Positions 29,668 to 34,505 of a stretch of DNA of 64,000 nucleotides are shown here, piece by piece. Source of the DNA: Iphione sp. A-MEVVRFRX5 (taxonomy: Eukaryota); contig OZ320320.1 of NCBI GenBank assembly GCA_976226885.1, positions 35,836,001 to 35,900,000 of the forward strand. Direction: 5' to 3'. How positions within the stretch are numbered: position 1 is the first letter of the stretch; each line of letters begins with the position of its first letter. Under the pieces are notes generated by a model, which saw only the letters and a program-made list of their open reading frames with translations, had not been told where the DNA came from and searched no databases. The translations under genes and the position numbers were made by a program.

Positions 29668-31029
29668 TATTTCATATCTATAGAATGTTGAGGGTCTGGG
29701 CCTTTAAAATCTTTAATCTGTTGATTTCTACCATAAAGGATGTATGTCTGATCAAATTGTACAATTAAAAAGAGAAGAAATACCAAATGATAGACAGAGG
29801 AAAGTTGAAATCGAAACACTGGAAATCCGAATTTTCTGAAACCCAACCGATATTTCTGGGAACCAACCTTTTTAGTGTATTTAACAAATGCATTAAAATT
29901 ATATTCAAAAACTGAATGCTTAGCCTTGGCGAGCTGATGGCGAGCCCCGTTGCTCTCCCCCAAGTTCATTATAATCAAAGGATTATGCTGCTATTTGAAG
30001 AGCTCGCACCTTGACGAGCTGACGGTGAGCCCAGTTGCTCTCTCCCATGTTCGCTACTGTTTGAAGGGCTTGAACCTCGGCGAGCCCCTCCGTCACTCTC
30101 CTCTCCTCCAAGCTCGCTGCCATTTGATTTTATTTAATTTTTATAGGTTGCATGGTCAAAAGTAAGTTTCTGGGGGATTTCTCTCCATTATTTCAGGTTT
30201 AGAATACACCACATTCATGATATGATTTATTTAATTTTTATAGGTATGCATAGTGTTGAGGTAGGGCCTGGGACCCCCCCTAACTGAGTGAAATTGACAG
30301 TGGCCTTAGGCCACTATTCGTAATCCGAATTATCCCAAAACTGAACCATTTTGGCGGAAACGGCGATCGTTCAGTTTTGGAATTCTCTCTGTATATCAAA
30401 TCAATGCTTTAAGATGATTTATTTTTCGGTTAATTCGGATTTTGAATTGTGGCCCATGGTCACTTTTCAACATTCTTGCCACATTCTTAAGACAAAAATT
30501 GGCAAAATTAAGGCAAATTTGTCTGAAAATCAGCAAAACCCAAATTTTAGGCAAATTTGTCTGAAAATTGGCAAAAAACAGCAAAATTTGTCTGCAAAGT
30601 GACAAAAATCAGACAGAATTGACCAAAAATATTTGGGCTTTGGAATGAAATGTTCAGTTATACGAGTATTTTAACAGAGAAAAACTATTGGTGCCAGTCA
30701 AAACTGTTCGGATTTTGAGAAATTTGTTTTTTGGGAAATTTGGTTTTTGAGTGTTCGGTTTTTGAGTAACCTCTGTACATTGAAATTACAATTTAGATTT
30801 TATCTTCATATTAAAACTACATATGCATGAACTAACATTACATGATTTTTACTTTACAGGTGTGGTTGATTTCCAGCATGCCTGGAAATTTGGCAAAGAA
30901 GATCATACAGTCCCAGTTCCAGACATCCTCGGTTCTGCCTCAAACTGTCTGCATTTCAGACGTGGCCACTTTGTAGATCTGTTAGTAGGATATAGAATTT
31001 GGGTCAAACCTGGAAATGTAATCCCTTTC

Positions 31030-31509
31030 TTTCTCTCTCTACAAAGTGTATCATAATGGATGTCTTAAATGTACTGAATTTGACCAATAAAAGTCCAAAT
31101 GTAGTTATGTCTTCTGATAATGGGTCAGAGAATTTTACTTCTAACCTAGTATGACCCCTTCTTACATTTTGTACAAACTTGTCACGTTCATTCTGACAGA
31201 CATGAAACATGTATAAACAATATCTATTTTCATACTCATCTTTCAATATGTAATTACTAAAATTTTGTGTTATCACAAAACATTGTGATAAAAGCAGATA
31301 AATAATTGCCAGTCTCATAATCAGAAATCAGTGGTTCTGCAAGCATGGATTTGCCATATACATAGAAAGCACTGAAATTACAATTGTAAGGTTGGTGATG
31401 GAAGGGATTCTTTGTGTAGCTTCCTATAAATCCTTCAGGTGCCATGGAACATATGACGGGTTGATTAGGCACTTCTCATTCAATATCTTCTAAACAAGTA
31501 TTCTAAACA
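31030..31509 (-). pseudogene. Polinton/Maverick major capsid protein (double jelly-roll, PY), C-terminal half
   Basis: EVPNQPVICSMAPEGFIGSYTKNPFHHQPYNCNFSAFYVYGKSMLAEPLISDYETGNYLSAF and KDEYENRYCLYMF...RRGHTRLEVKFSDPL match the Polinton MCP pattern F.GSY.KNPF.F.HY..N..A.YV.G..P..P....DF..GNY as I recall it. Confidence 0.75.
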
Positions 31510-32146
31510 AACACCAACCGCACTGAACAGAACGGGATAACAACAGGGTTGAACCAAGCAACCAATTCGCAGCAGAATGTGAGTGCAGCACCTACAGCTC
31601 CCGACCCAACCCAGAGGAACCACTAACACCACATACATCCATCTGTACAAGCAGAACGCAACTGAGCCACGAAGAAGCAACCGACCCCACCTCCATCAGA
31701 TGAGGACCGTGGCAAGGGTCCTGCTGCGAAGCACTGTACTAAGCCAAGACCACTGCTTTCTGACACCGACAGCAGCTCAGATGATGAGGGACTGCACAAT
31801 CTAGACATCTCCACCGACACAGACAGCACAGATGAGAACAGTGATCCCGCTTCAAACATAACAACAGTGTCCAACTGCCAAGTAAGCCTATTGACTCTAT
31901 GCCTTTGAACTTTGATAAAGTTAGGCCATGCGATCATACCACAACACCACGCACTGTCCCGTCACAAGTAAACGCACTGGGCAAGCTGCCAAACATCACC
32001 ACCAAACCCAAGTCAGTGAGTCCCCACAGCAAATCAACATGCATCAACTCCAAACCTTCTACATCTGGCATTAGCTGTGGGTCCAAAAAGACTGGTAGCA
32101 ACATTCGCCGCCCCCCTGCCACTGCTCCCAGAGCCCACAACCATAT

Positions 32147-32440
32147 GTGCCTAAATATATCCCAATGAAGAAGCCAAAGATGGGAGATGTCCGCCAAGCC
32201 CTACACACCTGTAACAAGGAGAATGATGATTCACCCAGGAGGGTGGTTCAATACAACCCGATACCGCTGACAAGACAAGACTGGGGGCACGAACAAAGGG
32301 CTCCACCCACGTGGGTCCCAGCATTGGAAGTGTTGTATGATCACTGGATGATTGTACAAAAACTCAACCAGGACATGGCAGATGTAATGGAAGCTGAGAT
32401 GCGCCGCCAGGGCATTCGCATGCCCAAATGCACACAGTAA
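32147..32440 (+). CDS. C-terminal part of an unknown ORF carried by the 1.4-kb insertion
   Basis: SPRRVVQ...RAPPTWVPALEVLYDHWMIVQKLNQDMA. It is preceded by S/T/D/P-rich decayed frames from 31510 and is homologous to 19938-20021. Confidence 0.5.
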   Translation: MPKYIPMKKPKMGDVRQALHTCNKENDDSPRRVVQYNPIPLTRQDWGHEQRAPPTWVPALEVLYDHWMIVQKLNQDMADVMEAEMRRQGIRMPKCTQ

Positions 32441-32810
32441 ACTACAAGACGTTGTGATTTGCCACCTGTGATATTTATTGATAAATGATTTTTCTCAGGA
32501 CTGTTGTGCAACTTTACATAATCTATATATTTAGTCAGAGACTTTTTCAGATCAATTTCACATCTATCAAATTTTCCAGAGATGGACAGTTTTTTAATAA
32601 TAATTTTCAGTAATTGATATTAAAAACTTAGCATCTATGCATATTAAATTTACACTCAAGGGCCTTTCAGACATTATTACGGTTACATTACCAGTTAGAA
32701 AAAGTTACATGTTATACCCAGAGTACACTGGGCCAGAGTTTAACATATACAGTATTGAGAGCACCATAACAGCTCATTTTCCCTACCTTAGAGTACCAGA
32801 CTTTGCTTTG

Positions 32811-32856
32811 AATTACCCCTGAAGAAGAACCTTTTCTGTTCGAAACGTTGGGAATT
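32811..32856 (+). ncRNA. Minimal type I hammerhead ribozyme (Penelope-type, no loop III)
   Basis: AAUU(A)CCC-CUGAAGA-A-GAAC-cuuuucu-GUUC-GAAAC-GUU-GGGAAUU. Conserved core, 4-bp stem II, palindromic ACGU in place of stem III, and stem I CCC/GGG plus AAUU/AAUU. Confidence 0.8.
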
Positions 32857-32912
32857 AAAAAACACTGAAACACATTTGACTGTGTTGTGTTGGTATGTTC
32901 ATCTTTTATTAC

Positions 32913-33240
32913 AACAAGTATTCTAAACACTGTATTGTCCTTTGGCAACAGCCAAAAGACTTGACACCTGAACATGGATAAAAGTATTTTGCTGGTCCAT
33001 ATTAAAGCATCTCTGCATGAGCTATGACAATCTCCGGTGCAACTTTGGACATGCATATTTTCAAAATGGCTTCCCTGATTTTGATTCTGAAGTCAGGTGA
33101 TGTCCTCAGACTCATTAGTTTGAATTGATCAGAATTTCACACTCCAAGACACCATTAAAGTTGAGTTGACCCACAGGTCACTAATTCACCTATTCCACAG
33201 ATGTATCTTTCACAGGTGTATAGAACAAGGACATGTTATC
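32913..33240 (-). pseudogene. Polinton/Maverick MCP, N-terminal portion (internally deleted)
   Basis: MSLFYTPVKDTSVE ... NFNGV ... NSDQFKLMSLRTSPDFRIKIREAILKICMSKVAPEIVIAHAEML*YGPAKYFYP..VKSF, matching MCP motifs F.LMS, I.EA.L, P.V..AH...L..AKYP. Confidence 0.7.
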
Positions 33241-33850
33241 AGTATGGCTGGCCATCTTTTCTAGAATTGTCCATTGTTGCATTTTGACTGAAGACTTCTT
33301 TTGGTGGTAACATTCTCCAGTGATATCTTGGAGCAGGCTTATGGTTTTTGTGTAGAAGATAATCATGGTTTCCTGGAAATATTTGTTGTGCAGTTGTATG
33401 AACCATCTGTCTATCAGCTGGCATGTCAAACAGTACCATTTAGTATGAGTTATATCTGACTGTTTTTGTCTCTGGACCAAAGAAATTTTGCATGATATGA
33501 AAGATAGGTTTTGGTGGCGACTACCCCTTGTATATAGATGAGCAATTCTCTGATCTTTTCCCACCTCAGTCATTAAATCATCTAAGCAGATTCTGTGTCT
33601 CAGGGTCAACAAAACCTTCATCTTCTAGGATAACTGATAGGCCATTATCAAACTCTACTCCACTCATACATGGGTTGCCATTGGGCATAACACCACACCA
33701 TTCATCATCAACATACATATAGTTGAATCCAATTTGATAGGATCTGAATCAAGTTATTGATCTAGGTAGTCTTCCCAATTTACCTACACCCAGCAATCAC
33801 CATAGCAAAAGGATGAGAAAATATCACCTCAGTATGCATCACATCTGGTG
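33240..33850 (-). pseudogene. Polinton/Maverick A32/FtsK-like DNA packaging ATPase
   Basis: HPFAMVIAGCR*IGKTT (Walker A, 33765-33794), VWCYAQWQPMY, CLDDLMTEVG (Walker B), LYTRGSRHQNLS, VLFDMPADRQ. Frameshifted. Confidence 0.85.
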
Positions 33851-34505
33851 TCACATCTGATGCTGGTGCTAGTGTCAGTGTTGTTGTTACATTGGGTGCC
33901 AGTACTGGTGCTGCTGTCAGTGCTGGTGTTACACCAAGTGCTAGTGCTGGTGCCAGTGCCAGTGTTGGTGTTACACCAGGTGCCAATACCACACTGGGTG
34001 CCAGTGCTAGTGCTGGTGCTGGTGATCATATTACACTGGGTGCTGGTGCCACTGTAGGTGTTACATTGGATGCCAATACTGGTGCTGGTGCCAGTGCTGG
34101 TCCTGCTATAATATCTGGTGTTGTTGCTGGTGTTACACTCGATGCCAGTGCTGTGCTGATGCTGGTGCAGGCCCGTAGCCAGGGGGTTATTGGGGGTATC
34201 GTCTGATACCCCCAGAAGACCCATTAGTTCCACCCAGAAAGAAATAGGGTCCCCACAGACTATGACTACCTCTCTAACCAGACCACCTCCCCAATATGAC
34301 CACTTAACAGAAGAGTTCAACCTCTCTAACCAAGAGTTCCACCCCTCTGACCTGGAGTTCCACTTCTTTAATTTAAGATACCCCCCAACAAAAGCTCCTG
34401 GCTACTGGCCTGTGGTGCCAGTACTGGTGTTACATCAGGTGCCAGTGCCAGTGGTGGTGTTACACCAGGTGCTGGTGCTGCTGCCAGTGTTGGTGCTGCT
34501 ATAAA
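33848..34505 (-). repeat. GCACCA-derived coding minisatellite (Pro/Ala/Thr-rich), split by a MITE
   Basis: Repeats of TGGTGC/TGGTGTTACA at 33848-34160 and 34413-34505. On the minus strand it reads APALAPGVTP-like and continues into the ATPase frame. Confidence 0.75.
34168..34412. mobile_element. 245-bp MITE, superfamily uncertain
   Basis: TIRs CAGGCC(C/A)GTAGCCAGG(G/A)G. Flanked by TGGTG on both sides (possible 5-bp TSD, ambiguous inside a low-complexity repeat). Confidence 0.75.

Follow-up and report, generated by a model that had tools for sequence, protein, structure and literature searches.

A truncated Penelope-like element copy within an Iphione Polinton, and the putative alternatively spliced second gene of its parent family

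Among the Penelope-like elements (PLEs) that encode an endonuclease (EN), those of the Neptune/Nematis type are described as carrying one open reading frame (ORF), or an additional upstream ORF1 (PMC8557442, Craig et al. 2021; PMC4209133, Cervera and de la Pena 2014), and a fish Neptune with an upstream ORF1 has been reported (PMC12602865). The present analysis concerns a stretch of 64,000 nucleotides (nt) from Iphione sp. A-MEVVRFRX5 (contig OZ320320.1 of assembly GCA_976226885.1, positions 35,836,001 to 35,900,000 of the forward strand; hereafter the window), in which a 1.4-kb insert of PLE origin interrupts a Polinton gene. The family to which the insert belongs resembles the Neptune/Nematis PLEs in its reverse transcriptase (RT), CX4CxxC linker, GIY-YIG domain, pseudo-long terminal repeats (pLTRs) and tandem copies, in its 5' truncation, variable target-site duplications (TSDs) and retained introns, and in a minimal hammerhead where A9 is followed by an extra base and stem III is palindromic, the likeness being one of features and not of an RT tree. 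Unlike those PLEs, it carries a putative alternatively spliced second gene and a promoter-like spacer downstream of the EN. The lineage is an EN-bearing PLE variant with a retrovirus-like accessory unit.

Two other described systems are comparable. In the foamy virus tas/bet region, one protein is made from unspliced RNA, excision of a 301-nt intron within its ORF gives rise to a second protein, and both an internal promoter and transactivation have been shown (PMC13220597). Similarly, the accessory unit of the present family lies near the 3' end, and its unspliced and spliced products are predicted to share an N-terminus (intron of 211-217 nt). Unlike in the foamy viruses, the unit is carried by a PLE, which has neither gag nor env, making this an analogy and not membership; an internal promoter is suggested here by motifs, and transactivation is putative. 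Bdelloid retrotransposons with long terminal repeats (LTRs), and Athena/Terminon PLEs, have been reported to share extra ORFs of the GDSL, DEDDy, coiled-coil and transmembrane types (PMC5408684, PMC6431247). As in that case, PLEs and LTR elements hold accessory ORF types in common, a pattern suggestive of exchange from one class to another. Unlike the Athena/Terminon PLEs, which are telomeric and devoid of EN, the present elements contain GIY-YIG and are dispersed, and what they share with LTR elements is a spliced zinc-finger gene, the repeated transfers of which are traceable.

Our reading, to which a probability of about 0.72 is assigned, is that an autonomous PLE gave rise to the insert, now a dead and 5'-truncated copy, and that the second gene of this PLE lineage contains a frame-shifting coding intron, is likely to possess an internal promoter and is likely to be a self-regulator. 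The structural part of this reading, i.e., the architecture, the splicing, selection on both products and the presence in two classes of transposable elements, appears very probable from the sequences compared, and the odds that the second gene is self-regulatory, as against anti-silencing or packaging, are judged by analogy to be roughly even. EN-bearing PLEs are usually portrayed as compact, single-gene elements, and a large active lineage with a fixed spliced second gene would alter that picture; the gene is also a concrete candidate for a transposon-made regulator moving among retroelement classes. The literature covered contained no downstream spliced zinc-finger gene in EN-bearing PLEs, and Repbase, subscription journals (including Arkhipova 2006) and supplements may hold one.

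The features of the insert are as follows.

31493..31509, + strand: left TSD copy (14-17 bp), an exact repeat, with the NAC ambiguity taken from family ends
31510..32440, + strand: decayed exon 2 (ORF B) of the PLE second gene, 62-79% amino acid identity to ORF B of locus L024
32312..32437, + strand: conserved helical domain at the C-terminus of ORF B, for which a strand and two helices are predicted, with no fold match
32574..32586, + strand: conserved TTCCAGAGATGGA motif, a DNA palindrome or RNA hairpin, present in 14/14 pLTRs
32770..32793, + strand: core-promoter-like module (CAGCTCATT..TACCTTAGAG), recurring in full-length copies on the upstream side of the second gene, with a putative promoter function
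32815..32852, + strand: minimal hammerhead, recognized by sequence pattern and covariation, with a predicted cut after GTT 32847-32849
32853..32915, + strand: PLE 3' tail ending TTATTAC-AAC, common to all family copies examined and the presumptive RT initiation region
32913..32929, + strand: right TSD copy, an exact repeat

The direct repeat flanking the insert (31493-31509 vs 32913-32929) is perfect over 17 bp, as stated in a first-pass annotation of the window. The duplication proper measures 14-17 bp, because family copies terminate in TTATTAC-NAC and the AAC with which the right repeat opens equally represents this usual terminal NAC. The decayed ORF rich in Ser, Thr, Asp and Pro, with its conserved C-terminal block, described in the same annotation was confirmed as an ORF B remnant having two stops and two frame changes and beginning ∼30 nt past the splice acceptor known from relatives. 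The insert was likewise found to contain no RT, GIY-YIG or poly(A). Pfam matched no family to the ORF pieces of the window, and Rfam gave no match over 31000-33500. The target site itself (window 31488-31509) contains two occurrences of a 9-base word, spaced 13 nt apart, where related Polinton copies have a single one.

The parent family was delineated by genome searches. The search with the insert DNA, in which the best 40 of 250 candidates were scored, gave at least 47 matches, and the protein searches (587 candidates for ORF A, the two-finger frame of the second gene, and 691 for ORF B) gave at least 150 matches each. Sixty diverse loci hand-chosen from the match lists, together with locus L021, were examined; the copies are related, and the counts below do not represent independent events. 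Usable ORF A was present in 59 of these 61 loci, of which 39 contained GIY-YIG and/or the hammerhead, 18 contained an antisense SGNH-like ORF and 2 contained neither. The full-length element measures ∼4.9-5.3 kb and consists of a pLTR, ORF1 and RT-GIY-YIG, the spacer, the second gene and a hammerhead-bearing pLTR. In the nearly full-length L021, pLTRs of 335 bp (98.5% identical) enclose, in order, RT, the CX4CxxC linker, GIY-YIG, a C2H2 ORF (ORF A) and a Ser/Thr/Pro-rich ORF (ORF B) matching the window insert. A second full-length copy, L234, shows identical 207-bp ends, an 8-bp TSD and a 771-amino acid (aa) RT-EN frame with Pfam matches to RVT_1 (E 3e-10) and GIY-YIG (E 9e-5), and L089 and L102 are tandem copies. 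The linker before GIY-YIG, CYRQSCNEC in L083 and CYRPNCKEC in L021, has the CX2-5CxxC form by which Neptune and Nematis are recognized in PMC8557442. Elsewhere, 5' truncation has left copies of 219-2770 nt with TSDs of 11-15 bp, several having no detectable TSD; over copies of ∼100 to 4900 nt the TSDs range from 8 to 17 bp. Copies with GIY-YIG are dispersed over many contigs. The family is not of the single-ORF type, since an upstream ORF1 overlapping pol and a downstream spliced gene are present.

At the 5' end of the PLE (loci L083, L087, L090, L104, L110, L120 and L234), an ORF1 of ∼190 aa ending in KRSRT overlaps the start of RT-EN in another frame in 6/6 subfamilies shown. The overlap is kept in L234, which is devoid of the second-gene intron (see below), and therefore a frameshift or an unspliced intron is possible at this position. 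A cassette-free PLE (L022:4179-7996; n = 1) was also encountered, with a 681-aa RT-EN frame, a different hammerhead and no TCCAGAGATGGA motif.

The second gene, situated between GIY-YIG and the 3' pLTR, carries a predicted frame-shifting, protein-coding intron of 211-217 nt. The unspliced RNA would encode a protein with two C2H2 fingers, and the spliced RNA would join finger 1 to a motif-rich tail. ORF B was found in the +1 frame relative to ORF A in 48/57 loci matching both, and the conservation of ORF A stops at 'YR'. The donor Gly codon ('GK' before finger 2) was GGT in 56/56, compared with 22/56 at a control Gly column, and the acceptor Arg codon (that of 'YR') was AGA/AGG in 57/57. The same held among 31 representatives with <80% identity (donor GGT 29/29, acceptor AGA/AGG 31/31), for which the codon backgrounds were 17/66 (26%) for the donor Gly and 104/338 (31%) for the acceptor Arg. 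The splice signals deduced are a G|GTAAR donor and a pyrimidine-rich TAYAG| acceptor, with GT in 58/59 loci (the exception falling in a deleted stretch) and AG in 58/59. The 3n+1 length of the intron is not evidence, because it follows from the definition of the sites. Frame B opens a median of 7 codons ahead of the acceptor and runs for at least 250 codons in 38/59 loci, compared with a median of 26 for the third frame.

Selection on the two products was evaluated as the ratio of nonsynonymous to synonymous substitution rates (dN/dS), pooled over 16 hand-picked pairs of relatives. The pooled dN/dS was 0.10 for exon 1 and 0.21 for the intron read in frame A. Past the acceptor, frame A gave 1.15 whereas frame B of the same DNA gave 0.35; for the last 110 codons of ORF B the value was 0.13. 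The unspliced and spliced products are both, by these ratios, under purifying selection. A natural counterpart of the spliced form is L234 (G000:C11:92601500-92608500), a full-length 4.9-kb copy 99.3% identical to L089, which is missing precisely the predicted 217 nt and nothing else and contains a natural fused frame of 419 aa. It was reached through exon-1 protein searches as 1 of 20 candidates fetched. An antisense template was proposed earlier to explain intron retention in PLEs (PMC3846280). A full-length copy lacking one exact intron indicates that sense, splice-competent RNA can also be copied, and therefore that intron retention is usual and not absolute.

Two alternative explanations bear on these structural findings. 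The first-pass annotation regarded the insert as a non-autonomous PLE-type unit or as a one-off 5' transduction, in which a PLE 3' end had carried a cargo gene of a CACTG DNA transposon to a new site. This would agree with the absence of RT and EN from the insert itself, with the presence of the cassette in another class of transposable element and with the report that host genes flanked by pLTRs can be mobilised in trans by PLEs (PMC3846280). The full-length relatives did corroborate that a PLE pLTR with a minimal hammerhead forms the 3' end and that PLE machinery inserted it, as well as the expected linkage of this end to PLE RT-GIY-YIG ORFs (in 39 loci, GIY-YIG and/or the hammerhead adjoined the cassette). 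RT-bearing elements contain the sequence as their 3' part, and its 5' ends vary, which contradicts a non-autonomous unit or a retrozyme. The ORF occupies a constant place in dozens of RT-EN copies, truncation lengths vary, and the identities of RT and ORF A co-diverge (Mantel r = 0.93, p = 0.0005; 31 loci, RT 56-97% identical); because these identities track each other, the insert is a truncated copy and not transduced cargo, and transduction from a CACTG element was rejected. The ORF is common to another class of transposon, as suspected; the partner is Gypsy, no CACTG-type element being seen in the 61 loci. A terminal inverted repeat scan of one locus belonging neither to the PLE nor to the SGNH class was negative, and no transposase was linked in the loci examined. 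Overall, a non-autonomous or transduced origin is very improbable. An equally slight chance is given to explanations without splicing, in which a programmed +1 ribosomal frameshift would join ORF A to ORF B or the two would be translated separately. In their favour, the frames overlap, and the selected frame changes sharply. Such explanations leave unaccounted for both the fixed G|GTAAR donor 210 nt upstream and the copy missing exactly the GT-AG segment, and frameshift joining was rejected on these two grounds.

The unspliced frame encodes two C2H2 fingers and a conserved block, and its core was predicted to fold as two finger-like units with a predicted local distance difference test (pLDDT) score of 84.5 and a predicted template modelling (pTM) score of 0.58. 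Helix positions 3 and 6 are nearly fixed, as S/R in finger 1 and N/R in finger 2. The spliced tail of ∼320 aa is disordered and of low complexity, with ordered short motifs and a helical C-terminus. Its motifs include basic KRRR/KRP stretches, the acidic DL(V/I)SSDS, YVPEY and Y.PTP, some of which we take to be like nuclear localization signals and SUMO-interacting motifs. A fold search with the ORF B C-terminus gave no match (best Z 3.7), and Pfam found no family in common among 19 ORF B proteins. A hidden Markov model search of 1.84 billion proteins with ORF B gave 35 matches. Among the 20 that were read, 19 contained the same C-terminal block and one (P0013) was a repeat artefact; ten were looked up and proved to be unnamed Logan or ENA proteins, and the order of the ORF B motifs is kept in the homologues. 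A word-index search with the ORF B alignment returned 6 unnamed Logan proteins, and word-index protein searches with ORF A (single sequence; alignment) returned no matches, which is weak evidence. Homologues P0002, P0009, P0010, P0022, P0027 and P0030 start with residues such as VTG, FTG, LTD and FIE. These starts match the frame-B reading of an acceptor TTA(C/T)AG, a hint that the splice may be conserved.

The spacer was scanned over 330 nt upstream of finger 1 in 28 representatives. The word TGACGTCA was found in 24/28 spacers (shuffle mean 0.15) and a second word in 16/28 (shuffle mean 0.8); we take them to be like a cAMP response element (CRE) and a kB site, respectively. Neither word was present in 14 pLTRs. 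The pLTRs and the spacer share the module GCTCA/GCCCA..TAC(C/T)T(C/T)AG, which precedes the hammerhead by ∼45 nt and finger 1 by 125-160 nt; it was spotted by eye, and the strict GCTCAT form occurs in some copies only. It is likely, from these motifs, that the second gene is transcribed from an internal promoter of its own.

The 18 SGNH-marked loci sit in large env-bearing Gypsy elements. These carriers (L092, L097, L111-L114, L117, L121, L122, L127, L129-L135 and L141) exceed 26 kb and contain several extra ORFs, and their antisense SGNH-like ORF, which lies directly upstream of the cassette, showed a weak match to Lipase_GDSL_2 (E 8e-4). The gag-pol regions are 90-95% identical between groups, and L125 is situated in a different Gypsy family. 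A cassette tree was built from 56 ORF A rows (the damaged L093, L107 and L139 were excluded), unrooted and with the Gypsy group fixed beforehand. The 18 Gypsy-borne rows fall in three separate places and need 3 changes; their monophyly was rejected by the approximately unbiased (AU) test, p-AU 6.6e-51, on this unrooted tree with a long-branch warning. One Gypsy-borne branch is sister to a specific PLE subfamily with support 98/93. Gypsy pairs retain the splice sites, the spacer motifs (CRE-like and kB-like) and purifying selection. Gypsy elements probably captured the cassette from PLEs, at least three times, with the PLE as the likelier donor on the tree. L125:891-2723 and L028:7034-8489 contain a C2H2 zinc-finger ORF of another kind, the acidic tail of which is long, the order in L125 being Gypsy pol, that ORF and then a truncated cassette copy. 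In L095 and L136, PLE copies of the present lineage interrupt an env-like ORF belonging to another Gypsy family; their positions are similar, possibly reflecting target preference or shared ancestry.

As a working scheme, host bZIP and NF-kB-type factors would turn on the internal promoter; the two-finger protein would bind element DNA and promote transcription; the spliced form would recruit or block host chromatin factors; and splicing would set the balance of both forms, as in foamy-virus Tas/Bet. The window copy would have arisen by target-primed reverse transcription from the 3' tail, halted after 1.4 kb, within an old Polinton. A bolder extension, judged by analogy to be somewhat less likely than not, is a 'complex' Penelope, a telomerase-related retroelement in which a signal-responsive internal promoter and a splice switch would set a DNA-binding activator against a host-factor-binding antagonist, as in foamy viruses, the whole forming a portable module that was captured repeatedly by Gypsy and has relatives in other, unnamed datasets. 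It is possible, if somewhat doubtful, that the same structure serves another job, the proteins countering host silencing, steering integration or helping to package RNA. ORF B, being disordered and made up of short motifs whose order persists even in the 35 unnamed homologues, would suit such a job, and the continued selection of the cassette in Gypsy elements, which mostly are without the pLTR palindrome, fits action on host factors. The near fixation of finger positions 3 and 6 is instead what sequence-specific binding would predict, and the CRE-like and kB-like spacer kept by Gypsy copies also speaks against another job. As to the direction of transfer, an origin of the cassette in Gypsy followed by passage to PLEs, or movement in both directions, is unlikely: the tree is unrooted and the cassette is found in two different Gypsy families, as such an origin would allow, but the cassette follows the deep PLE RT tree, and near-identical Gypsy backbones bear cassettes of three distant branches, including the sister of a PLE subfamily.

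Several observations weigh against an autonomous PLE with a spliced, self-regulatory second gene. The intron-less copy is single, none being found in the full-span DNA matches of two families, the 59 loci or the other fetched candidates, and gene conversion by cDNA could also account for it. The cassette tree, besides being unrooted, came with a long-branch warning. No copies starting at the proposed internal start were found. Foldseek matches of the finger model to C2H2-DNA complexes were weak (best E 0.13), the linker between the fingers is long (∼15 aa) and finger 2, a CxC type, is atypical. Instead of a DNA site, the palindrome conserved in the pLTRs may represent an RNA hairpin. No intact member of the window's subfamily was found, the nearest long matches, among the matches listed, being 76-79% identical.

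The hammerhead core of the window, CTGAAGA-A-stem II-GAAACGTT, was located at 32819-32849 and contains the palindromic AACGTT, which is proposed for dimer pairing. The minimal hammerhead claimed near the 3' end of the insert is in agreement with this, its pattern being conserved in the family though Rfam was silent. Fifty distinct family motifs, collected with a pattern that demanded C's on the 5' side, were compared. In stem II, pair 1 was paired in 49/50 and pair 2 in 50/50, the latter covarying (G-C 25, A-T 25). Pairs 1, 2 and 3 of stem I were paired in 50, 50 and 45 of 50, and pair 4 was unpaired in 47/50; therefore, the conserved stem I comprises 3 bp. The core pattern gave 627 exact matches genome-wide vs 0 for the reversed control. 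The TTCCAGAGATGGA motif gave 279 matches vs 12 for its control and was found in 29/33 PLE loci but 2/18 Gypsy loci. We take it, in its hairpin form, to have a GNRA loop, and the palindrome as a settled target of the zinc fingers was rejected, as it may be such a hairpin. Metazoan minimal hammerheads are described as having an additional base following A9, a G10.1-C11.1 pair and a palindrome at 15.2-16.2 (PMC4209133), and the window hammerhead shows all three traits.

Short solo copies of the hammerhead region were recovered from 17 short matches listed by the insert DNA search, 14 of which fit the hammerhead pattern. They are ∼100-nt insertions (L176-L193, L204-L233; G000, many contigs) spanning the first base of the hammerhead to the 3' tail. 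All 14 are without the upstream pLTR module and start with the A of ACCCCTGAAGA, except for one that starts a base later. An extra G precedes the start in 11/14 (binomial 4e-6 at 20% G) and is absent at the matching position of the full pLTRs compared; many solo copies have TSDs of 9-16 bp, and the G falls within the TSD in some. The G-form pattern gave 40 genome matches vs 1 for the control. The extra G presumably reflects copying of the cap by the RT. Such a cap-like G suggests that pLTR transcription starts at the first base of the hammerhead (A32815 in the window) and, therefore, that uncut RNA is copied from ∼100 nt inside. For the Poseidon element PAc of Anolis, it is reported that the RT initiates within the RNA downstream of the hammerhead and that cleavage is dispensable for insertion in vitro (PMC11167929). 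The solo copies are likewise consistent with internal initiation on uncut RNA and bear on PLE replication in line with that work. Unlike the in vitro evidence for PAc, the support here is genomic. No account of a cap-derived G in PLE copies was found in the literature covered, though Repbase, subscription journals and supplements may hold one.

The insertion of the PLE into the Polinton is ordinary nesting. The flanking pieces, identified by matches of both flanks to Polinton copies, are as follows.

30807..31492, - strand: downstream part of the decayed Polinton gene that is interrupted here (putatively encoding the major capsid protein)
32930..33268, - strand: upstream pieces of the same decayed gene

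The flanks match the Polinton relative L254, which encodes pPolB, an A32 ATPase and an rve-chromo integrase, and in ∼30 related Polinton places both flanks adjoin without an insert. In 9/10 fetched relatives, just 8 nt stand in place of the 17-mer of the window, and the window copy differs from relatives by 9 further bases at the insertion site; both flanks also bear other stops and frame changes. Thus, the clean rejoining of the capsid gene halves on removal of the insert, as initially claimed, is not seen in the relatives. The 17-mer itself occurred in 0/10 fetched relatives. The Polinton identity of the split gene stands; its capsid label is presumptive, from motifs, size and position, and the 435-aa homologous ORF had no Pfam or PDB match. 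Farther along the window, 33845-34499 is a degenerate repeat array based on a 6-nt unit and interrupted by a 245-bp element (34168-34412) with 21-bp inverted ends, possibly a miniature inverted-repeat transposable element.

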